From: Candidatus Eiseniibacteriota bacterium
GTDB lineage: Bacteria; Eisenbacteria; RBG-16-71-46
Length of the DNA stretch: 64,000 nt
Assembly: GCA_031364845.1 (NCBI GenBank)
Contig: JANLWX010000019.1
Coordinates: 3,508-67,507 of the forward strand
Direction of reading: 5' to 3'
Shown: positions 2,580-26,999 of the stretch, piece after piece
Layout: the number at the start of each line of letters is the position of its first letter
Numbering within the stretch: the first letter of the stretch is position 1
Notes under the pieces: model-generated
Databases searched by the model: none
What the model was told of the DNA's origin: nothing
Seen by the model: only the letters and a program-made list of their open reading frames with translations
Made by a program: the position numbers and the translations under genes

Positions 2580-4289
2580 ATGACACCGAGGAATCTGTTC
2601 TCCTCAACGCTTGCGGCACTGTTCGTGGCCGGCGCGCTCGGCGCGTCGCTCGCGACGGCTTCGAGTCACCGCGAAGCCCCGGCGATCTCCAAGGATCCGA
2701 CCGCGGACAACACCGACGTCTACGCCTTCCGCAGCCCCGACAAGCCGAATACCGTGACGATGATCAGCAACTGGCTCCCGCTGCTCGAGCCGGCCGGCGG
2801 ACCGAACTTCTTCTCGTTCGACGACAAGGCCGTCTACACCATCATCGTCGACAACGCCGGTGATGCGCAGGATCACATCGTCTACGAATTCCGCTTCAAG
2901 ACCCACGTGCGCAACGGCAACACGTTCCTCTACAACACCGGCGCCGTGACCTCGCCGTCCGATCCCGATCTGAATGTCTATCAGACGTACTCGGTCAAGA
3001 AGATCGTCAACGGAAGCAGCACCACGATCGGCTCCGATCTGCTGACGCAGCCGAACCGCGTCGGACCCAAGTCGACGCCGAACATCAACGAGCTCGGCGA
3101 AGACGCCGTGCATAAGCTGTCGGACGGTTCGTATGTGTTCGCCGGCGAGCGCGACGATCCGTTCTTCGTGGATCTCGGCGGCGTGTTCGACCTGCTCACG
3201 ATCCGCAAGCTTCCGGGCGATCTCGGACAGGGCGTCGACGGTCTGCGCGGATTCAACACGCTGTCGATCGCGATCCAGGTGCCGATCGAGAAGCTCACGA
3301 AGGACGCCAAGAGCGCGAGCGCGACGGGCTTTCCGATCCTCGGCATCTATTCAACCACCGAGCGCGACGGCAAGCGCGTGTCGCGGCTCGGCGCCCCGCT
3401 CGTGAACGAGGTTGTGATTCCGCTCAAGGACAAGGACAAGTGGAACGCGAGCGATCCTGCCGATGACGGCCAGTTCCTGAGCTACGTCACGAACCCGGAA
3501 CTCGCGGGCCTGCTGAATGCGCTGTACGGCATCAGCGTTCCCCCGGCTCCCCGCAATGACCTGGTCGCGGTGTTCCTGACCGGTGTCGCCGGCCTGACCC
3601 AGCCTGCGGGCGGCACGCCGAACGAGATGCTGCGGCTCAACGTCTCGATTCCTCCGAGCAGCAACCCCAGCCGTCTCGGTGTGCTGGGCGGCGACCTCGC
3701 CGGATTCCCCAACGGCCGCCGGCTCGCGGACGACGTGACCGACATCGAGCTGCGCGCGGTCGCGGGTGTGCTCGTCAGCGGATACAACATCGCCCCGAAC
3801 AATCGTCTTGGTGACGGTGTCGACTTCAACGATCGCGCGTTCCTGAGGGAGTTCCCCTACGTCGCGCGTCCGTTCGATCCGGTGGCGCACAATCACCATC
3901 GCACCGAGCCCGCAAGCGGACCCGGCCCGGCGGCCGAGCGTCTCGACTCAGGACGTGCCGACGGCGAGAACACGATCATGGTCGAGTCCGAAGACTTCGT
4001 GGAAGGCGCCGATGAGGACTCGCCGCTCCAGATCCGCAGCTCGCAGCCGGCGAAGCGCGCGCTGCTGCGCTACACGCTGGCCCGTGAAGCGGCCGTGACA
4101 CTGCGCATCTTCGACGTCCAGGGTCGCAACGTGAAGACGCTGGTCGACGAGCGCAATCAGCCGGGCGCGATCGACGTCCAGTGGGACGGCTCCGATGACT
4201 TCGGCTCGTTCGCCGGCAACGGAGTCTTCTTTGCCCGTTACTCGGTCGACGGCAAGCTCGTGAACACGAAGAAGCTCGTGGTTCGCTGA
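2580..4289 (+). CDS. DUF4331-family secreted protein, copy 1, with FlgD-Ig/CTD-like tail
   Basis: Signal peptide followed by SSHREAP, DNTDVYAFRSP, AGERDDPFFVDL, RLGAPLVNEV, GFPNGRRLADDVTDI. AGGA RBS before ATG 2580. The ORF-track start at 576 is an antisense shadow extension. Confidence 0.9.
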   Translation: MTPRNLFSSTLAALFVAGALGASLATASSHREAPAISKDPTADNTDVYAFRSPDKPNTVTMISNWLPLLEPAGGPNFFSFDDKAVYTIIVDNAGDAQDHIVYEFRFKTHVRNGNTFLYNTGAVTSPSDPDLNVYQTYSVKKIVNGSSTTIGSDLLTQPNRVGPKSTPNINELGEDAVHKLSDGSYVFAGERDDPFFVDLGGVFDLLTIRKLPGDLGQGVDGLRGFNTLSIAIQVPIEKLTKDAKSASATGFPILGIYSTTERDGKRVSRLGAPLVNEVVIPLKDKDKWNASDPADDGQFLSYVTNPELAGLLNALYGISVPPAPRNDLVAVFLTGVAGLTQPAGGTPNEMLRLNVSIPPSSNPSRLGVLGGDLAGFPNGRRLADDVTDIELRAVAGVLVSGYNIAPNNRLGDGVDFNDRAFLREFPYVARPFDPVAHNHHRTEPASGPGPAAERLDSGRADGENTIMVESEDFVEGADEDSPLQIRSSQPAKRALLRYTLAREAAVTLRIFDVQGRNVKTLVDERNQPGAIDVQWDGSDDFGSFAGNGVFFARYSVDGKLVNTKKLVVR

Positions 4290-4715: not shown

Positions 4716-6464
4716 ATGGCTGGGAAGAAGAACATGCTGCTCTCCTCGTTGCTCCTGACAGGACTGTTCGGAGCGTCGTTCGCATTCGCCTCGAGCCACC
4801 GCGAGGCTCCCGGAATCGCGAAGGATCCGACCGCCGACAACACCGATGTCTACGCGTTTCGCAGCCCGGACAAGCCGAGCACGGCGACCCTGATCGCCAA
4901 CTGGCTGCCGATCGCCGAGCCGGCAGGCGGTCCGAACTTCTTCCAGTTCGACGACAAGGCGGTCTATCAGATCCACGTCGACAATGAAGTCAACGGACGC
5001 CACATCGTCTACGAATTCTATTTCAAGACCGGCATCCGCAACCCAAAGACGTTCCTCTACAACACGGGCGCGGTCACGTCTCCTACCGACTCCGACCTCA
5101 ATCTCTACCAGACGTACTCCGTCAAGAAGGTCGTTGACGGTAACAACGGCGAATGGATCGGCCGTGACCTGCGCACCCAGCCCAACCGGGTCGGGCCCAA
5201 GTCGACTCCGAGCATCAACGACCTCGCCACCAAGTCCATCTACGACCTCTCCGACGGCAGCAAGGTGTTCGCAGGCGAGCGTGACGATCCGTTCTTCGTC
5301 GATACGGGTGCCTTGTTCGACCTGCTCACGATCCGCAAGCTGCCGGGTGACCAGGGTGAAGGTGTGGACGGACTGCGCGGCTTCAATGTGCTGACGATCG
5401 CGCTTCAGGTTCCGATCAAGGATCTGGCGATGAGCAGCAGCGGCGACGGCGATGACGACGACGATGGCAACATCAAGGTCGGGGCGGACAGTCACATCGA
5501 CGCCAACTATCCGATCATCGGCGTCTATGCCAGCACCGAGCGCGCCGGCAAGCGCGTTTCACGTCTCGGCAGCCCGCTGGTCAACGAAGTCGTAATCCCG
5601 CTCGGCGACAAGGACAAGTGGAACATGAGCGATCCGAAGGACGACGCGCAGTTCCTCAAGTACGTCACGGATCCCGAGCCGGCGCGCCTGCTCAAGGCGC
5701 TCTACAACATCAACGTCCCGCCGACGCCGCGCAACGATCTGGTTGCGGTGTTCCTCACGGGCGTCAAGGATCTGAACCAGCCGAAGAATGGAACCCCGAG
5801 CGAAATGCTGCGGCTCAATCTCAAGATCGAGCCGAGCAGCAATCCGAGCCGTCTTGGTGTGCTGGCCGGTGACCTCGCCGGTTTCCCGAACGGCCGCCGG
5901 CTCGCGGATGACGTGACGGACATCGAGCTGCGCGCGCTGGCGGGCGTGCTCGTGCCGGGTTACAACGTCGCCCCGAACAATCGTCTGGGTGACGGCGTCG
6001 ATTTCAACGAGCGCGCGTTCCTGACCAAGTTCCCGTATGTCGCGTTCCCGCACGACGGGTTTGCGCACAATCACCATCGCACCGAGCCCGCGAGCAGCGC
6101 GGGGCCGGCTGCAGCGCGCATGGGATCAGGGGAAGCCGCGGAGGAACTCTCGATCGTCGTCGAAGAAGACGACTTCGTGGCGGGCATGGAAGTCGAGCCG
6201 CTGCAGGTTCGCGGCGAAATGCCGGCCAAGCGGGCGCTGCTGCGCTACGCCCTGCCGCGTGACGCGAACGTGACGCTGCGCATCTTCGATGTGCAGGGTC
6301 GCAACGTTAAGACGCTGGTCGACGAACACAGCAAGGCCGGAGCGGTCGACGTTCAGTGGGACGGATCCGATGACTTCGGAGCCACCGCCGGCAAGGGCGT
6401 GTTCTTCGCCCGCTACTCGGTGGACGGCAAGCTCGTCAACACGAAGAAGCTCGTCATTCGGTAG
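4716..6464 (+). CDS. DUF4331-family secreted protein, copy 2, with FlgD-Ig/CTD-like tail
   Basis: Same motifs as copy 1 (SSHREAP, GFPNGRRLADDVTDI), with long identical blocks and an extra acidic insert SSSGDGDDDDDG. Start is ATG 4716 (GTG 4710 is an alternative). Confidence 0.9.
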   Translation: MAGKKNMLLSSLLLTGLFGASFAFASSHREAPGIAKDPTADNTDVYAFRSPDKPSTATLIANWLPIAEPAGGPNFFQFDDKAVYQIHVDNEVNGRHIVYEFYFKTGIRNPKTFLYNTGAVTSPTDSDLNLYQTYSVKKVVDGNNGEWIGRDLRTQPNRVGPKSTPSINDLATKSIYDLSDGSKVFAGERDDPFFVDTGALFDLLTIRKLPGDQGEGVDGLRGFNVLTIALQVPIKDLAMSSSGDGDDDDDGNIKVGADSHIDANYPIIGVYASTERAGKRVSRLGSPLVNEVVIPLGDKDKWNMSDPKDDAQFLKYVTDPEPARLLKALYNINVPPTPRNDLVAVFLTGVKDLNQPKNGTPSEMLRLNLKIEPSSNPSRLGVLAGDLAGFPNGRRLADDVTDIELRALAGVLVPGYNVAPNNRLGDGVDFNERAFLTKFPYVAFPHDGFAHNHHRTEPASSAGPAAARMGSGEAAEELSIVVEEDDFVAGMEVEPLQVRGEMPAKRALLRYALPRDANVTLRIFDVQGRNVKTLVDEHSKAGAVDVQWDGSDDFGATAGKGVFFARYSVDGKLVNTKKLVIR

Positions 6465-6483
6465 TCTCGAACCACAAATTGAA

Positions 6484-18222: not shown

Positions 18223-18405
18223 TCACCCCCCGCGAGCGCGGTATGCCAGATAGACGCACGCGACGATCAGAATCAAGAGAGCCAGCCGGGCCATGCCCAT
18301 CATGCGCGTGCGCGCGAGGTGCTGGGTACCTTTGGGTTTGATTCCCGTAACCGCTGCCAGCGCGGTGATCACCACCGCGATTCCGAGCCACATGAGCCAC
18401 GTCAT
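18223..18405 (-). CDS. Small two-TM membrane protein (60 aa)
   Basis: GGAGGG RBS; MTWLMWLGIAVVITALAAVTGIKPKGTQHLARTRMMGMARLALLILIVACVYLAY; start overlaps the upstream stop. Confidence 0.7.
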   Translation of the reverse strand: MTWLMWLGIAVVITALAAVTGIKPKGTQHLARTRMMGMARLALLILIVACVYLAYRARGG

Positions 18406-19739
18406 CTCGATCCCTCCGACCCTGCCGTGCGCAGGTCTTCTGGTAGCCGCGGCGAAGCGAGCAGTGTGCGGTACAACTCCCAGCGCCGCGCGGAATGTGC
18501 GGCGTCGCCACCATTCTTCTCCAGCCAGTCGAGCACCATCGATCGTCCGAGCCGGTAGTTGATCACGTAGCTCCCATAGCGTTCGGCGAAGCGGAGATCC
18601 TTGTCGGCGCGCTCGGGCGTTCGAACGGCGTACTCCATGAGCCACTGCTGCGCCTGGTCGCGAGTCATCGTCCCGTCGATCCAGCGGCGCGCGCCTTCGA
18701 CGCCGGTCATGGATAGTCTCTGCATGGCGTCGGAAATCTTCGCGAAGCGATCGTAGGCGCTGGTGTCGATTCCCGCCAGCGGGCACAGGACGTTCTTCGT
18801 GAAGCGATCGAGCTCGGCGCCCGGAAATGCGACATCAGTGCCTATCACAGCGGTGCCCTCGGCGATCAGCGACTGAGGCGCCATGAGCGGGTAGATCGTG
18901 AACTCCTTCCATCCGCGCTCGCGCACGAGCGCCTGTTCCAGCAGCACGCCGTAGACGTGATGACCTGGGTAGCCTTCGTGGCACGCGAGGTCCAGCGCCC
19001 GATCGATGTAGCTCGGGAAGTCGATGTTCACCTGAATCAGGCTGCGGTATCCGCCCTGATACCAGTTGTAGCCGCCCCACGGCTGGCCCTTCACGAACTC
19101 GACGACGAACGATTCGGAATCCGGCAGCGTGATGTGTTCGATCGTGCGGCGGCGCGCTTCCGCGATCGCGACCGCGAAGACCGTGTCGAGCTTCGCCGCG
19201 GGAATCTTGAACGCTTCACGATAGAGCTCCCAGCGCTCGACGAGCGGACCGCTGCCCGGCAGCAGTGAGTCGAGCGTGGCGAGCGCGGGCCGGAACACCG
19301 AGTCGACGAGCGACGGCGCGACCGCGTCGTAGAGCGCCTGCGACTCCTGATCGAACGAGAACTTCTCACCGTTCAGCATGCGCGCGCGGAACGCGAGCGC
19401 CTGGAGTTGCCGGCGCAGGAAACGTTGGCGCAGCACGGTGAGCTCGTCAGCGCCGCGCGCCGCCGGAGTCTCGAGGCGCGCGACGAGCGAATGGGTCGTG
19501 GAGATGATTCGCGGGAGCGGTATCGAGTCGCGATCCGCCGCGGCTTTCCATTCCGGCGGACCATAGAACGCGTCGACGTAATCAGGGTCGTGCTTCGCCA
19601 TGGCGAGCACCATGCGAGCGTAGCGTTCGCCCAAAGCATCCAGTTCCGCAGGCGTCAGCGCGGCCGGTCGTGAAGCACAGGAGGCAACGACAGCGGCAAC
19701 GAACATCAGGCTCAGCAATCGCAATACACGGTGAAACAC
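18402..19739 (-). CDS. Lipoprotein with DUF885-like metallopeptidase motif
   Basis: GGAGG before GTG 19739 (ATG 19754 is an alternative); lipobox VASC; ACHEGYPGHH and EG motifs. Confidence 0.75.
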   Translation of the reverse strand: MFHRVLRLLSLMFVAAVVASCASRPAALTPAELDALGERYARMVLAMAKHDPDYVDAFYGPPEWKAAADRDSIPLPRIISTTHSLVARLETPAARGADELTVLRQRFLRRQLQALAFRARMLNGEKFSFDQESQALYDAVAPSLVDSVFRPALATLDSLLPGSGPLVERWELYREAFKIPAAKLDTVFAVAIAEARRRTIEHITLPDSESFVVEFVKGQPWGGYNWYQGGYRSLIQVNIDFPSYIDRALDLACHEGYPGHHVYGVLLEQALVRERGWKEFTIYPLMAPQSLIAEGTAVIGTDVAFPGAELDRFTKNVLCPLAGIDTSAYDRFAKISDAMQRLSMTGVEGARRWIDGTMTRDQAQQWLMEYAVRTPERADKDLRFAERYGSYVINYRLGRSMVLDWLEKNGGDAAHSARRWELYRTLLASPRLPEDLRTAGSEGSR

Positions 19740-19750
19740 GAATCCTCCGG

Positions 19751-20199
19751 TCATGCTCCGCGCAAGGCCGCGATTCGCGGGTCGCGGCTTCCGGGACTGT
19801 CGAGGCTGAACGACCGTGCATCGCCGAGGTCGTCGCGAACGAGTCGTCGCCGAACACTTCGCGCTCGAGATCGCGCGCATCGAGCAGGCTGCGATGATCT
19901 TGGCGCAGCAGCACCATCGCATCGATCCCACTCACGAGCGCGATCTGATACCTCTACGTAGGTGCAACCGCGCGCCGCGGGCAGTTCATGGATCTGGAGC
20001 GACGCGGCCGCGGCATCCGCCTGGGCGCGGCCGATGCCCGCGCGGGCAAACAGCGTGAGATAGGGACCGACGCCGCCCACCGAGCGCGACCAGCCGCTGC
20101 GCTCGAGAACTTCCGCGGCGGACCGGCTCATGAGCGATCCGTCCAGTTCTGGCGATGCCACCACCAGGCCCGCAGCTTCTCCGCCAACGCCGGTTTCAT
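19751..20199 (-). pseudogene. Decayed AlkZ/YcaQ-like winged-helix DNA glycosylase gene (frameshift plus two apparent internal deletions)
   Basis: GGGAGA RBS + ATG 20199 gives MKPALAEKLRAWWWHRQ. After a frameshift near 20148: LDGSL...GWSRSVGGVGPYLTLFARAG...IHELPAARGCTYV. Another frame gives YQIALVSGIDAMVLLRQDHRSLLD. The end is LGDARSFSLDSPGSRDPRIAALRGA*. Family assignment is from memory of the motifs. Confidence 0.55.
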
Positions 20200-20373
20200 G
20201 GTTCGCGATCTCCCGTGATGGCGAAAAGTGCCTTGCAGTCGCAGACGCCGAGACTATAACTTGCTCGTACTTCGCTGGCATCCGGGCGTTTTCCACCGGG
20301 CCGGCAACGACTCCAGCGCGTTCGAATTGCATCTTGCCTCCGGTCATCCGGAGATCAGCCGAAAGGATCGAAC

Positions 20374-20832
20374 ATGCGTGGCCTGCCCCCGCTTGTTGCC
20401 CCACTGCTCGTCGCATTCTCACTGATCATCGGGTCCGGCGTCGCGTCGAATCCAAAGACGGCGGGCGATCCGTTTCGAGCCGGATCTCCGATCACCGTGC
20501 GAAAACCGGTTCGCATTCAGCGGCTCGCGAAGCATCCGGAGAAGTTCCAGGGCAAGGTGCTGAGGCTGGAAGGCACGGTCAAGGATGTCTGCCAGGGCCG
20601 CGGTTGCTGGGTCGACATCGAGGATGCGAACGGCGTGACCTTCATGGCGAAGAGCCTCGACGAATCTGTGTTGCTGCCCAAGGATTGCGCGGGGCGCAAG
20701 GTGATCGTCCAGGGTATCGTCACCGCACTTCCGCACGCGCACGACGAGGCGACCGAGGAAGGCCACTCCTGTCCCGCCCCGCGTTTCGTGCTGGCGACGC
20801 AGGGCGTGGAGTTGATCGCGGAACGGAGATAG
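20374..20832 (+). CDS. DUF4920-domain secreted protein (OB-fold-like)
   Basis: Signal peptide; GKVLRLEGTVKDVCQGRGCWV...LPKDCAGRKVIVQG. Confidence 0.8.
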   Translation: MRGLPPLVAPLLVAFSLIIGSGVASNPKTAGDPFRAGSPITVRKPVRIQRLAKHPEKFQGKVLRLEGTVKDVCQGRGCWVDIEDANGVTFMAKSLDESVLLPKDCAGRKVIVQGIVTALPHAHDEATEEGHSCPAPRFVLATQGVELIAERR

Positions 20833-21082
20833 CCGCGCGCGAAACCCGCGACTCGGCGGCGCGATCATCATCGAGACGGTGATCGCGCCGCGTTCGCGAA
20901 GGCCGTGTTTCGAACCCGGTTTCTATCTCTTCGAGAATCGATCCGTCGCCGCCAACAGCGCGCGTGAGTTGGGCGGCTCGAAGGCACTGTGGCCGCTGTC
21001 CGGCGTCATGATGAAGTCCGCCTCGGGCGACGCGCGGTGCAGATCCCATGCGCTGGTCGGCGGGCACAGGACATCGTAGCGG
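20755..21082 (+). repeat. Left copy of composite direct repeat (DUF4920 3' 78 nt + spacer + pip 3' 160 nt)
   Basis: 20755-20832 matches 25324-25401 (7 mismatches by manual count); 20923-21082 matches 25477-25636 (6 mismatches). Confidence 0.95.
20923..21082 (-). pseudogene. Orphan 3' fragment of proline iminopeptidase
   Basis: Encodes RYDVLCPPTSAWDLHRASPEADFIMTPDSGHSAFEPPNSRALLAATDRFSKR*, with no 5' part. Confidence 0.9.
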
Positions 21083-21342
21083 ATCGAAGAACCGCCGAGT
21101 GGAACATCCTCTTTGGTTCCGTCAGGACGAGACGGCGAGCCGTCGTGGGCGGGGCGAGTGGTTTCACGGTCGTTCCGTAGATCGGGTCCCGCCTTCCTCA
21201 GTAGCTGCGCGAGGTCGAACCCTAAGGAAAATGCTCCAACCGCCGGGATTCTTTCCGTAGACGCCTCTCAACTTTGTCGCCAGGGCGGAGCGGCTGTTCG
21301 GGCTATAATCGCGTGACAAAACCCGTCCGGAAGGAGTCCTTC

Positions 21343-23292
21343 ATGCTGAGATCCTCCACCCGCTGGTCCGTCCTGATGGCGGCAGTACTCCTCTTCGCCC
21401 CGGATCGAGCTGTTTTCGGCCAGACCCCTGCGCAGGATGGCCAATGGTCACCGCTCTTCAACCTGCCCCTCATCGCGATCCATTCGAGCCTCCTCCCGAC
21501 AGGCCACATCCTGCTGTTCTCGGCCGAACACGGGGTTCCGGGCATACACGCATGGGTCCTCGATCCCCAAACGTTGGCACTCACCAACGTGCCGCCTCCG
21601 GCTGGATGGAACCTCGATTGTGCAGGGCACAGTTTCCTTCCAGATGGACGTTTGCTCGTCGCGGGAGGCACGCTTCAGTTCAACCCGCTCCTGGGCTCGA
21701 AGCGCGCTGCCATTTTCGACCCGTATACATTGGCATGGATCCCGGTCGCGGACATGGCCGACGGCCGCTGGTATCCGACCAATGTCACGCTCCCCGACGG
21801 CCGCATCGTGACCATGTCCGGAGTCGACGGCACCTCGGGCGCGCTCAACACGGACATCGAGCGTTGGGATCCCAACGGTAGCTCGAACTGGGAGCTGATC
21901 GGGCAGAGACTGATGCCCGACTACCCGAACTTGCACGTGATGCCGAGCGGGGTGGTTTTCCGCTCGGGGCCTGACTCGCAAACGGAGACTTACAATCCCG
22001 CCACACTCGTGTGGACGCCGGTGGCCACGACCAACGCGCCAGCACGCTACGAAGCGCCCTCGGTTCTGCTTCCACCGACGTTGAATCGAGTGATGCTCAT
22101 GGGTGGCTATGTCGAGACCAGCGGTACGCCGACCAATTCGGTCGAAACGATCGATCTGTCCGCCCCGACGCCGACATGGGTCATCGGCCCGCACATGCTG
22201 ACTCGTCGCATCCAGCACAACGCGGTACTGCTTCCGGACACCAAAGTGCTGGTCGTAGGAGGCAGAAGGAACACCGCTGGCGGAGTCGGTGATTCGGTGA
22301 TGGCCCCGGAGATCTTCGATCCGGCCACGTCCGTGTGGGATGCCGTCGCGTCCCACCGCGTCGCGCGAATGTACCACTCCACGGCGCTCCTGCTTCCCGA
22401 CGGGCGTGTCTTGTCGGCCGGTGGCGATTACCACCCTTCAGGCGAGATCTACTCACCGCCTTACTTATTTGCCGGGCCGCGCCCGGTCATCAACTCCGCC
22501 CCGGCGGCCATCGCCTACGGCGACACGTTCCCAGTCACCTTCGCCAGCGGAACAGGACCGTTCACGATTTCGTTGATCGCGCCTTCGGCCGTGACGCATT
22601 CGAACAACATGAGCCAGAGATATGTACGCCTCATCCAAGTCGCGGAGGAGGGGACCGTCGATGTTCCGGCACCCGCCAACGCGAACCTGGCGCCGCCGGG
22701 TTTCTACATGCTCTTCGTCACTGACGCGACCGGCGTTCCCTCGGTGTCGCGCATGGTCAGGATTCTCATCCGCTTCGGCGACTTCAACCAGGACAACGAC
22801 GTCGATCCCGCGGACCTCGACTCCTTCGAGATCTGCTTCACCGGTCCGAACGCAGGACCTCCCGGCCGCAACTGCGAGTCCGGCGACTTCGATGCGGATG
22901 GCGACATCGACTGCGCCGATTGGAGTCTCTTTGTCGAGGCGTGGACCGCTCCGGGCGAACCTGCGCCGCCGGCAGAGTGCCGGTCGACCGGAGTTGGATC
23001 GCAGGGATTCAGTGGCCTGGTTCAACTTCGTGCACCTTGGCCGAATCCTTCTCGCGACTTCGTCGACATCGGGTGCTCGTTACCTTCGGAATCGACGATG
23101 CGGCTCACCGTGCACGACGTGACCGGCAGGTTGCTCGCTGTGCTGGTGAACGGACGCCGGGCAGCGGGTGAGGTCACGCAGCGCTGGAAGCCGACAGATC
23201 GAAGCGGCCGACCGTTGCCCGCCGGGGTGTACTTCGCGCGCTTGGCGGCATCAGGGAAAGCCGTGTCCCGGTTGTTCGTCGTAACCGAATAG
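21343..23292 (+). CDS. Galactose-oxidase-like (AA5-type) kelch copper radical oxidase with dockerin/EF-hand-like repeats and FlgD-Ig/CTD-like tail
   Basis: AAGGAG RBS; TATAAT at 21304; signal peptide; NLDCAGH, RWYPT, RMYHST, VTHS; DFNQDNDVD and DFDADGDID repeats; tail GVYFARL. Confidence 0.88.
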   Translation: MLRSSTRWSVLMAAVLLFAPDRAVFGQTPAQDGQWSPLFNLPLIAIHSSLLPTGHILLFSAEHGVPGIHAWVLDPQTLALTNVPPPAGWNLDCAGHSFLPDGRLLVAGGTLQFNPLLGSKRAAIFDPYTLAWIPVADMADGRWYPTNVTLPDGRIVTMSGVDGTSGALNTDIERWDPNGSSNWELIGQRLMPDYPNLHVMPSGVVFRSGPDSQTETYNPATLVWTPVATTNAPARYEAPSVLLPPTLNRVMLMGGYVETSGTPTNSVETIDLSAPTPTWVIGPHMLTRRIQHNAVLLPDTKVLVVGGRRNTAGGVGDSVMAPEIFDPATSVWDAVASHRVARMYHSTALLLPDGRVLSAGGDYHPSGEIYSPPYLFAGPRPVINSAPAAIAYGDTFPVTFASGTGPFTISLIAPSAVTHSNNMSQRYVRLIQVAEEGTVDVPAPANANLAPPGFYMLFVTDATGVPSVSRMVRILIRFGDFNQDNDVDPADLDSFEICFTGPNAGPPGRNCESGDFDADGDIDCADWSLFVEAWTAPGEPAPPAECRSTGVGSQGFSGLVQLRAPWPNPSRDFVDIGCSLPSESTMRLTVHDVTGRLLAVLVNGRRAAGEVTQRWKPTDRSGRPLPAGVYFARLAASGKAVSRLFVVTE

Positions 23293-23317
23293 GATGGGTC
23301 GCGTGAGGATATTGCCG

Positions 23318-25309
23318 ATGCTCAAGACCATCGCTGCCCATGGTCTCGTCTTCTTCCTGGCGGCTTCTGCCACGCAGGCGGCCACCGTCCGCGGCACGGT
23401 CGCGGGATGGGACAGCCCGATGCTCGCCGGCGCCAGGGTCACTCTCATCAACCCCGACACCTCGACCGTGCTCGAAAACCGCAGCACGATCGACGGCACC
23501 TACCGATTCGAAAACGTGTCCGCAGGCACGTGGCTCATTGGCGCCTCGCGGCTGGGCTATGCCTACCGAGAATCTCTGCGCGTCGTCGGTGTCGCCGAGG
23601 TCGTCACTGACTTCCTGCTCGGGCGGGACGACCATCCCGGTCGCTGGACCACGATCGGGAATACGGACCCCGAGAATCTCTATGCCACGAACTCCGCCAG
23701 CCTGCTCCCGGACGGCCGCATCTTCTTCTGTCACGACACGAGAGATCCCGTACTCTTCGACCCGGTCACGCGCGTGAAGTCCTTTCCGCCCGGCTCATCG
23801 TCGATTCAGGGCTGCCACATTCCTTCGCTCTTGCCGGACGGCCGGCTGATCTTCATCGGCGGTCAAGACACCGGCGATTTCCGCGACGCGACGCGCATGG
23901 TCAAGGCGTTCGATCCAGCGAACAGCACCTGGGAGGTGCTGCCGCTCCTCAACGAGCAGCGCTGGTACCCCGGCATGGCTCGCCTCGGCGATGGGCGCTT
24001 CTTGGTCATGGGCGGAGGACAGCGCCCCAACGCGCAACGCACCGAGACTTGCGAAATCTACGATCCTCGTAATCGGACGTGGACCGTCGCAGCCTCCATG
24101 TCCAATTCGGCGGAGTACACGCCAGCGGTGCTCTTACGCAATGGGAAGGTCCTGCGGACATGGTGGCCACCGCAGCTCTACGACTCCGCCCTCAACCGGT
24201 GGGACGATACCAGCCCCATGGTCCAGACGAATCGTTTCTGGCCCGGGCACTCCGACCACTCGCTCTTCCGGCTGGCCGATGGTCGAGCCTGTGCGGTGGG
24301 AATCTATCGAGGCACCCTCATGTCGCCGAGCATGATCGAGTTCTATGATCCGGCGGCGGGAACTTGGTCACTCGGTGCGAATGCCAGCGTGACTCGTTCT
24401 CAACCTGAGGCGGTGCTCCTGCCGACGGGTCAGATCCTCGTTGCCGGCGGAAAACTCGAGGACACAGCCCACGGCATTCCGACCAACTCCTATGGCCAAA
24501 CGAAACTGACCGATCTGTTCGACGCCGCAACCAATAGCTGGCGTCGCTGCGCCGACACGGCTTGGTTCCGAGAATATCACGCGACCACATTGCTCATTCC
24601 GGACGGTCGCGTAATTACCTCTGCTGGAACCGGCGGCCCGGCAAATCCAGGCGTGAGCAACGACATCGAGGCATTCGAGCCGCCTTATCTGTTTCGAGGA
24701 GTTCGTCCCCTGATCGGTGCGCTCTCCACCACCAGCCTCCCCCATGGCGGCAGCTTCAATCTGACCGTGAGCCGCACCGATGGCGTGACCGGCGTCGTTC
24801 TCGTGGGCATGGGAGCGGTGACCCATTATGTCGATGGGGGTCTGCCACTCATTGTGCCCCTCTCGTTCACGCAGCAGGGCAGTTCCGTCACTGCCGCGGT
24901 TCCTGCGGACTTGTATGCGGCTCCGACGGGGCATTACATGCTCTTCGCCCTGGTCGACGACATCCCTTCAAAGGGTCGGGTAGTGACGATCACCGATTCC
25001 ACCACGGTAGGCGTCTCACCTCAGGTGCCTGACGGGCAACTCACGGCCAGCGTCCAGCCGAACCCTTTCCGCACGTCGGTTCAGTTTCGCTGGTTTCAGC
25101 CCCAGCCGGGATATGCAACCGTGCAGATCCAGGATGTTGCTGGCCGGACGATTTTAGTGAGGACTGTAGATAGAAGCGCCGGTTGGCAAGCCCTCGACTG
25201 GGACGGCCGGAGCAAAGGCAACGCCCCGTCAACAGCCGGCGTCTACTTTGTGCGCGTCGATGCTGGAAGTCTCAGTTGGAGTAATCGTTTCGTCCGTATC
25301 GACTACTAG
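23318..25309 (+). CDS. Galactose-oxidase-like kelch protein with N-terminal carboxypeptidase-regulatory-like Ig domain and FlgD-Ig/CTD-like tail
   Basis: GAGGA RBS before ATG 23318 (23294 is an alternative); signal peptide; IQGCH, RWYPG, REYHAT, VTHY; tail WDGRSKG...GVYFVRV. Confidence 0.85.
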   Translation: MLKTIAAHGLVFFLAASATQAATVRGTVAGWDSPMLAGARVTLINPDTSTVLENRSTIDGTYRFENVSAGTWLIGASRLGYAYRESLRVVGVAEVVTDFLLGRDDHPGRWTTIGNTDPENLYATNSASLLPDGRIFFCHDTRDPVLFDPVTRVKSFPPGSSSIQGCHIPSLLPDGRLIFIGGQDTGDFRDATRMVKAFDPANSTWEVLPLLNEQRWYPGMARLGDGRFLVMGGGQRPNAQRTETCEIYDPRNRTWTVAASMSNSAEYTPAVLLRNGKVLRTWWPPQLYDSALNRWDDTSPMVQTNRFWPGHSDHSLFRLADGRACAVGIYRGTLMSPSMIEFYDPAAGTWSLGANASVTRSQPEAVLLPTGQILVAGGKLEDTAHGIPTNSYGQTKLTDLFDAATNSWRRCADTAWFREYHATTLLIPDGRVITSAGTGGPANPGVSNDIEAFEPPYLFRGVRPLIGALSTTSLPHGGSFNLTVSRTDGVTGVVLVGMGAVTHYVDGGLPLIVPLSFTQQGSSVTAAVPADLYAAPTGHYMLFALVDDIPSKGRVVTITDSTTVGVSPQVPDGQLTASVQPNPFRTSVQFRWFQPQPGYATVQIQDVAGRTILVRTVDRSAGWQALDWDGRSKGNAPSTAGVYFVRVDAGSLSWSNRFVRIDY

Positions 25310-25323
25310 CCGGGTCTATTCAT

Positions 25324-25636
25324 GAGGAAGGCCATTCCTGTCCCGCACCGCGTTTCGTGCTCGCGACGCAGGGCGTCGAGTTGATCGCGGAGCGGAAGTA
25401 GCCCCGCGCATCGCCGGCGGCTCGGGTCGCGTGGATTGCCACGCGTCGCATCCGCGATTGCGCAGAGCCCCGGCCCCTATCTTCCCGAGAATCGATCCGT
25501 CGCCGCCACCAGCGCGCGTGAGTTGGGCGGCTCGAAGGCACTGTGGCCGCTGTCCGGCGTCATGATGAAGTCCGCCTCGGGCCACGCGCGGTGCAGATCC
25601 CATGCGCTGGTCGGCGGGCACACGACATCGTAGCGG
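25324..25636 (+). repeat. Right copy of composite direct repeat (orphan DUF4920 3' tail + spacer + 3' end of intact pip)
   Basis: 25324-25401 encodes EEGHSCPAPRFVLATQGVELIAERK* with no upstream gene body. Confidence 0.95.
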
Positions 25637-26480: not shown

Positions 26481-26999
26481 CTACGGGCCGATGGGACTTC
26501 GCGCGGCCGATTCCTCGAATTTCGCACGGTGTTCGTATGCGCCAGCATCCCACGTCAGCCCCCACGCGGCGAGCGCGGTGGCACGGTGACGCAGGACGAA
26601 CGCGCGATCGTTCGCCGTTGGCGCCAGAACTTCGGCGCGATCGAATCGCCCTGAGGCCTCGGTCACGAACGCCACGCGCTCCGGTGTCGAACGAACACTG
26701 GGAATCAGCATCCCGCGGCGAGGCATGGTCGCGACCGCGGCGTTCATCAGCGCGGCAGCATAGTCGGCGTGGATCTGCCACAGGTCGGGACGCTGCGCGA
26801 GTGCCGCGCGAAAGTAGGGCAGCGCGTCATGCGGGCGATCGCTCCTCACCAACTCGACACCCTCGAGATAGGACGCTTTCGCATCGATCGTCGCGACCGG
26901 ATCCGACGTGTGAATGCGATCGGGCGACGGCTGCGACCCGCACGACGTCACGATCACGGCCGACCCTGCCGCCAGCGCGAGCCGTGCAGCCCGGTTCAT
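26481..26999 (-). CDS. TPR-like lipoprotein
   Basis: Lipobox VTSC; helical repeat ALPYFRAALAQRPDLWQIHADYAAALMN; start overlaps the upstream stop. Confidence 0.7.
   Translation of the reverse strand: MNRAARLALAAGSAVIVTSCGSQPSPDRIHTSDPVATIDAKASYLEGVELVRSDRPHDALPYFRAALAQRPDLWQIHADYAAALMNAAVATMPRRGMLIPSVRSTPERVAFVTEASGRFDRAEVLAPTANDRAFVLRHRATALAAWGLTWDAGAYEHRAKFEESAARSPIGP

Follow-up and report, generated by a model that had tools for sequence, protein, structure and literature searches.

A secreted-oxidase gene cassette between duplicated tails of two convergent genes in an Eisenbacteria-like genome has the structure of an insertion with long target duplication

How does a cassette of a few kilobases come to lie between two copies of the ends of two convergent host genes when no mobility gene accompanies it? 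The question is raised by a locus in a 64,000-nt stretch of DNA (the window) from an uncultured bacterium of Candidatus Eiseniibacteriota (assembly GCA_031364845.1, contig JANLWX010000019.1, positions 3,508 to 67,507; contig C61 in this analysis). The genome is a 4.6-Mb metagenome bin of 233 contigs with 3.7% contamination. At this locus a 4,241-bp insert carrying two oxidase-like genes separates a DUF4920 gene from the convergent prolyl aminopeptidase gene (pip), and a block made of the DUF4920 tail, a spacer and the pip tail stands on both sides of it. The reading that we favour, and to which we give about an even chance of being right, is an integrase-independent 'insertion with long target duplication' that was followed by one homologous exchange between strains.

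The layout was determined from a listing of open reading frames (ORFs), a repeat search and pairwise alignment; codes of the type L### denote loci or contigs of relatives or of cargo homologues. An earlier reading of the letters without database searches (the sequence-only reading) had proposed a gene order with coordinates for the locus, and both were reproduced:

20374..20832, + strand: full DUF4920 gene, 152 aa (PF16267, E = 1.7e-11); its orthologues, 78-93% identical, adjoin pip in relatives
20755-20832, + strand: last 26 codons of the full DUF4920 gene; of the two duplicated tails, this one is functional
20755..21082: left copy of the block, 328 nt, consisting of DUF4920 tail, spacer 1 and orphan pip tail (repeat search, alignment)
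20833..20922: spacer 1, 90 nt, its centre without alignment to spacer 2; unique in the genome
20923..21082, - strand: orphan pip 3' fragment, 52 codons and stop, frame intact (alignment with the pip ends of L109, L110, L111 and L019)
21083..25323: insert, 4,241 bp, single-copy in the genome and missing from the syntenic site of L111, L019 and L109
25324..25636: right copy of the block, 313 nt, consisting of orphan DUF4920 tail, spacer 2 and resident pip tail (repeat search, alignment)
25324..25401, + strand: orphan DUF4920 3' fragment, 25 codons and stop, frame intact, differing from the functional tail in the manner of a natural allele
25402..25476: spacer 2, 75 nt, with a weaker 7-bp hairpin; unique in the genome
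25477..26451, - strand: full pip gene, 324 aa (Pfam Abhydrolase_1/Hydrolase_4); the sources of its orthologues say proline iminopeptidase

The block was present in exactly two copies in the genome, both on contig C61 (second copy, E = 1e-93). Both joints were located inside coding regions, 26 codons ahead of the stop in DUF4920 and 53 in pip, and both host genes are whole, so that the restoration of DUF4920 and pip described in the sequence-only reading holds. The two novel joins connect pip codon 272 to the insert and the insert to DUF4920 codon 127, each in unique sequence. Neither terminal inverted nor terminal direct repeats were found at the insert ends, where the best end-to-end alignment covered 10 nt, and a search of both insert junctions for microhomology gave nothing. 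The window contains no tRNA gene, and the site gave no match to any Rfam family. The orphan tails of DUF4920 and pip should best be annotated as pseudogene fragments and not as att sites.

Loci of relatives were collected by a metagenome scan with pip and by protein searches with pip and DUF4920. In L019 (pip 84%, acn 93% identical) the order is acn-pip><DUF4920-up509, and the block is single-copy and contiguous. L111 (pip 92%, DUF4920 91%) has pip><DUF4920 with a 90-nt spacer and no cassette, L109 (pip 88%) has the same gene order with a 316-nt spacer and no cassette, and L110 (pip 92%) lacks both DUF4920 and the cassette. Thus, the empty DUF4920-pip junction that the sequence-only reading had suggested looking for in relatives does exist, in L111 and L019, and the cassette represents a real insertion, which is unlikely to be the ancestral state. 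In the five relatives' contigs that cross the site (L019, L109, L110, L111, and L146 on the DUF4920 side) the cassette was absent from all, and the arrangement of the window did not recur. No other cargo was seen at the site in these relatives; it was empty, expanded by a palindromic spacer, or had lost DUF4920. Among the species representatives of GTDB, other genera showed no DUF4920-pip adjacency, and the genome of the same genus gave no DUF4920 match and only a 45%-identical pip-like match.

The two copies of the block differ from each other in two distinct ways along their length. In the DUF4920 tails 7 of the 78 nt differ; five synonymous codons account for most of the differences, exactly as listed in the sequence-only reading, and the remaining codon is AGA/AAG (R/K). 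Third codon positions hold six of the seven changes (P = 0.007 under equal likelihood of the three positions). Each tail is 5 nt away from the allele of L146 (DUF4920 93% identical) and 7 nt away from the other tail. When the alignments were read by eye, the orphan tail shared its state at most of the 7 differing sites with at least one relative, and most of the differing states of both copies also occurred in relatives. The spacers (90 and 75 nt) barely align, as had been stated: matches were limited to ~24 nt at one end and ~10 nt at the opposite end, the centres (58 versus 43 nt) were unalignable, and the hairpins are different. That of spacer 1 is strong, with a 14-bp stem at ~20856-20891 (fold z = -3.2 on the + strand and -4.2 on the - strand). 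Judged by these patterns, the DUF4920 half together with the spacer is a pair of natural alleles, which would have diverged while both were part of working genes. Polarising the differences between the DUF4920 tails by outgroups failed, as synonymous sites were saturated among the relatives. An origin of the spacer difference from repetitive extragenic palindromic (REP) sequences or miniature inverted-repeat transposable elements was ruled out, as both spacers are unique in the genome.

The pip half gave the opposite pattern. Its tails differ at 6 of 160 nt, the count given in the sequence-only reading, which had missed that all four codons affected carry replacements (V>L, W>S, V>L and G>K) and that synonymous differences number 0. 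The four replacement states (L, S, L, K) are all private to the orphan fragment on the left. Where it shows V>L (twice) and W>S, the resident tail on the right has the same residues as L109, L110 and L111, and L019 keeps the W too. Where it shows G>K, three of these four tails have G, and the only departure of L111 is in its last residue. Functional pip orthologues compared with the resident tail showed 10-15 synonymous and 0-2 replacement codons. The contrast in synonymous differences between the DUF4920 half (5 of 26 codons) and the pip half (0 of 53) was significant (Fisher P = 0.003). For a donor as divergent as the DUF4920 tails suggest, ~6 synonymous codon differences would be expected in the pip tail, scaled from the comparison with L111. 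Because synonymous differences are lacking and the replacements are confined to the orphan, the pip half looks like a single allele of which the orphan copy has drifted without constraint, that is, like decay. The two pip copies share exact blocks of 23, 73 and 39 nt, and the switch between the two regimes of divergence falls between the region of the pip stop (~20931) and 20955. The last-but-one pip codon, with its triple change, may have to be counted in the diverged zone and not as decay. Duplication in situ followed by drift alone was ruled out as an explanation of the whole block, given the third-position changes in DUF4920 and a divergence of the spacers that far exceeds that of the neutrally evolving orphan tails. 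If the copies are expected to be nearly identical at birth, the pip half fits, and the differences in the DUF4920 half and the spacer need an additional exchange or a switch in the assembly. From 3-6 changes per 160 nt in the orphan pip fragment and a synonymous distance of ~0.25-0.3 to the 92%-identical relatives, the insertion would be, as a rough estimate, about one-fifth to one-third as old as the split from those relatives.

No mobility machinery was found to explain the insertion. As the sequence-only reading had noted, no integrase is present in the window; PF00589, the Pfam family used in the search, gave 10 matches in the genome, on nine other contigs and none on C61. No recombinase or transposase was detected by Pfam in the 42 called ORFs of the window or in the nine larger alternative-frame ORFs of the insert. 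Nor does the insert resemble a transposon or insertion sequence (IS), having no terminal inverted repeats and no transposase, and the duplication of 313-328 nt is not short. At the locus neither a recombinase gene nor att sites of a known element family were found. A scan of the genome for similar short direct repeats of high identity returned mostly tandem paralogues, and only one case, on contig C111, looked comparable. There a 145-nt direct repeat (3228-3372 and 6324-6467, 92% identical) surrounds four small genes (203, 270, 160 and 245 aa). It consists of the 3' 45 nt of tRNA-Arg(CCT) and ~100 nt downstream, and no ORF of integrase size lies between the copies.

The insert itself is somewhat low in GC. 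Its GC content is 62.9% against 66.3% for the genome, within the lowest 6% of 4.2-kb genome tiles, and the GC content at third codon positions is 0.74-0.76 against 0.78-0.84 in neighbouring genes; the AT-richness noted by eye in the sequence-only reading is thus weakly supported. Four features were delimited within it:

21096..21149, - strand: probable scrap of a copA-type P-type ATPase gene, 55 nt, internal and frameshifted (blastn, 82% over 55 nt to C36:10103-10157, E = 5e-6)
21298..21342, + strand: conserved upstream region of the cargo, GGGCTATAAT ... GGAAGGAG before the ATG (blastn limits, upstream alignment)
21343..23292, + strand: GOX1, 649 aa, homologue of secreted galactose-oxidase/GlxA-like copper radical oxidases (Pfam, structure match)
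23294..25309, + strand: GOX2, 671 aa, paralogue of GOX1 (~30% identical) with an N-terminal CarboxypepD_reg domain (Pfam)

GOX2 starts 1 nt after the GOX1 stop. Both products have N-termini that resemble signal peptides in translations read by eye, Kelch repeats, a GO-like E-set domain and a C-terminal sorting domain of the FlgD_ig type, which is found in many proteins of the same genome. The Pfam matches were Kelch, Glyoxal_oxid_N and GO-like_E_set, and the features of an AA5-like fold, a seven-bladed Kelch propeller followed by a C-terminal E-set domain, were present. The best match of GOX1 among solved structures was 4unm (E = 5e-55), which we take to be the Streptomyces cuproenzyme GlxA; fungal galactose oxidases followed at ~1e-28. 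In the alignment with 4unm the GOX1 motifs ldCaGH, RWYPT, mYHS and THsn stood opposite the same motifs, presumably the positions of the Cys-Tyr pair and of the Tyr/His/His copper ligands; those of GOX2 were read by eye only. The two genes are presumably kept by selection, since both are intact.

The cargo is accessory and occurs elsewhere in quite different company. GOX1 homologues, 71-85% identical, were found in other contexts, mostly beside a GOX2-type partner, and the pair is conserved in L102, L103, L106, L107 and L112-L114. Their neighbours include mer, CusB/OEP efflux, ArsR-MIP-ArsC, cupredoxin, DUF305, ChrB or copA genes, and the nearest named genomes that contain them are metagenome-assembled genomes of Candidatus Eisenbacteria. 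A close GOX1 orthologue was present in one of 40 related species genomes, which belongs to another family, and was absent from the same-genus genome. A source within the present genome was ruled out, as the insert is single-copy and other GOX-like genes are at most 37% identical outside the shared sorting domain. Self-comparison of 11 other GOX loci revealed no flanking repeats.

Similarity to other GOX1 loci begins at ~21298, with a TATAAT-like box and a ribosome-binding site. This upstream region would serve as a promoter; a scan of the left junction for consensus promoters and terminators found nothing. The ~215 nt to the left of 21298 are a context-specific patchwork, and at the very edge of the insert lies the putative copA scrap, a short match that aligns to codons ~349-367 of the genome's own copA on contig C36. 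The loci with the closest GOX1 relative (85%) have, immediately before GOX1 and on the other strand, a 3'-terminal piece of a copA-type gene (L099:7519-7854, L100:4880-5216 and L101:1-189). It covers residues ~756-861, is 74-84% identical to the copA of this genome and has the same geometry as the orphan pip tail; these contigs end just after GOX1. With a copA scrap and patchwork at its left edge here and a copA fragment upstream of GOX1 in those three loci, the cargo looks like a piece cut from a copper or metal island by illegitimate joins.

Rearrangements of other kinds were observed at the same junction in relatives. In L109 (region 2452-2798) the pip/DUF4920 spacer is 316 nt long. It contains an imperfect palindrome with 57-nt arms of a GAAGTCACGCGGCGGG-type motif and a tandem duplication of 74 nt, in which the final 30 nt of pip are repeated (28/30 identical). 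L147 ends inside the palindrome and L148 folds back on it. L146, which holds the closest DUF4920 relative, is a contig of 1,105 nt whose first and last 33 nt are identical, which gives a cycle of 1,072 nt. Its DUF4920 gene is flanked on both sides by 5' pieces of an AlkZ-like gene (matching L110 1463-1222 and 1723-1431), and L146 is either a DUF4920 unit between direct repeats of ~0.5 kb or a small circle. In L110 (1200-2477) an intact gene for an AlkZ-like DNA glycosylase (PF06224) directly follows pip and there is no DUF4920, an arrangement that would be the expected product of recombination between repeats of the L146 type. A remnant of the same gene lies in the window, between up509 and DUF4920:

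19840..20278, - strand: remnant of the AlkZ-like DNA glycosylase gene; two stretches of the L110 gene, ~581 and ~164 nt, are deleted from its interior (blastn against L110)

Among known systems the locus corresponds most closely to the 'insertion with long target duplication', described for restriction-modification genes that stand between direct repeats of 30-420 bp, the repeats matching an empty site in a related genome (Furuta et al. 2010, Nucleic Acids Res 38:2428, PMC2853133; after Nobusato et al. 2000, Gene 259:99). In those cases mobility genes were lacking, and the repeats were unique and often lay across a stop or start codon, with the target gene surviving; left and right repeats were 93-99% identical in three cases of Table 3 of that paper (PMC2853133). 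Its authors proposed no mechanism and suggested a life cycle of insertion, amplification via the repeats and release. The present insert is likewise of a few kilobases (4,241 nt, below 20 kb), with no mobility genes in or near it. Its direct repeats exceed 30 bp (328 and 313 nt) and correspond to one single-copy stretch at the empty site of L019 and L111. They are neither a multi-copy sequence of the IS or REP kind nor an att site of the tRNA type, and the target genes are intact. In contrast to the published cases, the cargo consists of two secreted oxidase-like genes and not of restriction-modification genes, the block covers two gene ends, those of a convergent pair, the copies combine two alleles in a mosaic, and the host belongs to an uncultured Eisenbacteria-like lineage. 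Restriction-modification cargo was a selection criterion of the published surveys and is not a property of the rearrangement itself. In its structure the locus agrees with the class on every point, and it adds a further case to a kind of insertion that is known but whose mechanism is unexplained.

Other comparisons fit less well. The e14 element and phage 21 insert at the 3' end of Escherichia coli icd; they encode an integrase, use a short recombination core and bring a replacement tail for one gene. Like them, the present locus has an orphan and a working tail with mainly silent differences and a functional target gene; unlike them, it has no integrase, two tails and a spacer are duplicated, and half of the block is without allelic divergence. 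Cis-mobilizable elements (CIMEs) are att-flanked derivatives of integrative and conjugative or integrative and mobilizable elements that have no integrase and are mobilised by a related element arriving at the same site. The present cargo also lies between direct repeats without recombination or transfer genes of its own, whereas no att core, known element family or helper is evident here. CIMEs are named in ICEberg 2.0 (PMC6323972) and in a review (PMC5704250). Host homologous recombination alone can also integrate DNA through one homologous segment and create duplications bounded by repeats, as in Campbell-type integration, in homology-facilitated illegitimate recombination, where the non-homologous end is described as joined illegitimately (PMC3240628), and in transformation-triggered duplications of Streptococcus pneumoniae (PMC3784515). 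Those systems are known from laboratory crosses with defined substrates. The half-and-half divergence of the present block differs from the outcome of a one-step Campbell event, and, in contrast to homology-facilitated illegitimate recombination, neither junction here shows microhomology.

Under the favoured reading, the history would have had two steps. In the first, a cassette composed of the two oxidase-like genes, their own upstream region and the ~215 nt of patchwork with the copA scrap would have been joined into the convergent DUF4920/pip junction. The ~0.32 kb between the joints would have been copied on both sides, so that both host genes remained complete and each left an orphan tail. 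Most likely this event yielded a pair of identical copies, and the lineage in which it took place would have carried the 'right-hand' alleles. It may have originated in illegitimate replication or repair, for example by two template switches or by fill-in at a widely staggered break; such an origin is favoured by the position of the joints in unique sequence, by the lack of microhomology, by the patchwork at the left end and by the absence of a recombinase. In the second step, a homologous exchange would have taken place between the insertion-bearing chromosome and a related empty-site chromosome, with the crossover in the orphan pip fragment (~20932-21082), the last homology available on that side. 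The DUF4920 tail and spacer 1 would then derive from the empty-site lineage, and the orphan pip fragment and everything to its right from the insertion-bearing lineage; either chromosome may have been the donor. The orphan tails would be portable homology arms, through which host recombination could spread or delete the cassette.

The sequence-only reading had proposed that a circle from a related strain, carrying the cargo and the block, was integrated in one step. A single crossover within the block by host RecA (Campbell-type) would give exactly the observed order of block, insert and block; one DUF4920 tail and one spacer do have the character of a foreign natural allele; the exact stretches of 73, 39 and 23 nt in the pip half would be enough for homologous pairing; and the 1,072-nt cycle of L146 around DUF4920 could mean that circles, or units bounded by repeats, occur at this locus. 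Of this proposal the derivation of one DUF4920 tail and spacer from a related lineage stood, and the one-step integration did not fare as well. Wherever the crossover fell, the circle would predict divergence between donor and host along the whole block, so the pip half, with its 0 of 53 codons where ~6 were expected, disfavours integration of a foreign circle in one step. To save it, the two strains must have shared a pip allele despite a 9% difference in the adjacent 78 nt, or gene conversion must have followed, and the first joining of cargo to block would still need explaining. We give this explanation a modest chance. A smaller one goes to a strain-chimeric assembly, in which the assembler switched within the shared pip tail between an insertion strain and a co-occurring empty-site strain and the mosaic is an artefact; in a variant, a free circle was threaded into the contig of an empty chromosome. 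The genome is after all a metagenome bin of many contigs with some contamination, a switch would be expected just where the long exact blocks lie and would yield the same sequence, and the assemblies of relatives break or fold back at the same site (L147, L148 and the cycle of L146). Yet both novel junctions are in unique sequence and must be real DNA, which leaves the duplication and the orphan tails real in any case; no alternative version of the locus was found elsewhere in the bin, and a 4.5-kb circle without a replication gene would not persist.

It is improbable that the cassette is an att-flanked, CIME-like remnant of a site-specific integrative element for which a tyrosine or serine recombinase is encoded at another place in the genome or provided by a helper element. 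Integrative elements such as e14 at icd do typically have diverged replacement tails that differ at silent sites, there are about nine tyrosine-recombinase loci on other contigs, and the tRNA-Arg-flanked islet on C111 also has no obvious integrase. Neither the insert nor the window nor the contig contains a recombinase, however, and both tails would be superfluous for an element that inserts between convergent genes. In the 11 loci compared, the cargo was never accompanied by this block or any flanking repeat, the five junction-spanning contigs of relatives show no other element at the site, and the left edge of the insert is patchwork junk in place of a conserved att arm. The analogy with att sites at tRNA 3' ends drawn in the sequence-only reading found no support: no recombinase, no recurrence of the element at the site, and the same cargo elsewhere without such flanks. 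Very improbable is an ancestral arrangement from which relatives lost the cassette, even though recombination between direct repeats would restore a clean empty site and the locus is prone to deletion, as the loss of DUF4920 in L110 illustrates. All five site-spanning contigs of relatives would have to be without the cassette by loss, other lineages have the GOX pair in metal-resistance contexts that are unrelated, the same-genus genome and 38 further relatives lack a close GOX1 orthologue, and the copA scrap and low GC point to import.

Several points weigh against an insertion with long target duplication followed by exchange. The left flank could have been joined to the rest by the assembler and not by recombination, so that an exchange in the cell is probable rather than observed, and a Campbell-type origin of the first event is possible. 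The codon statistics come from small samples, 78 nt for the DUF4920 half and 159 nt for the pip half. Look-ups of the exact pip and DUF4920 protein sequences returned nothing, no relative closer than 92-93% protein identity was found in the collections searched, and no strain with the insertion and two identical copies of the block, the predicted parental state, was among them. The published class has restriction-modification cargo, which possibly makes the break, and the present cargo has no nuclease. Also, the mechanism of long target duplication is unexplained in the published cases (PMC2853133).

Two further genes lie near the locus. A 172-aa ORF (26481-26999, - strand) overlaps the acn stop and fills the gap between acn and pip; its N-terminus, ...IVTSCGS, is possibly a lipoprotein signal when read by eye. 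The acn-pip gap is ~20-140 nt in L019, L109 and L111, without this ORF, and L110 seems to have its 3' end. Two distant paralogues (32-36% identity) occur in the genome, and no flanking repeats were seen. On the other side, up509 (18402-19931, - strand, ~500 aa) has no Pfam match and was found in close relatives alone (70-79% identical); eight related species genomes were all without it.

The locus extends long target duplication to a cargo without a nuclease and to a little-known uncultured phylum. A case free of nuclease speaks for a break that can arise without help from the cargo. The half-and-half divergence offers a usable signature, and it suggests that a formed unit moves between strains by homologous recombination, with the orphan tail as one arm. 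Spread of this kind would be a simple route, free of integrase, for accessory genes related to metals. If integrase-free cassettes with duplicated gene tails have a common cause, the locus would be well suited to testing it: besides the occupied site, an empty one and further rearrangements of this junction are available in relatives. It is conceivable, if doubtful, that long target duplication is a general, cargo-independent route of entry between convergent genes in this phylum, with orphan tails as homology arms and the DUF4920/pip junction as a hot spot. If that were true, a mobile unit would exist that has neither a mobility gene nor a nuclease of its own, and host recombination alone would spread, excise or circularise the cassette between strains.

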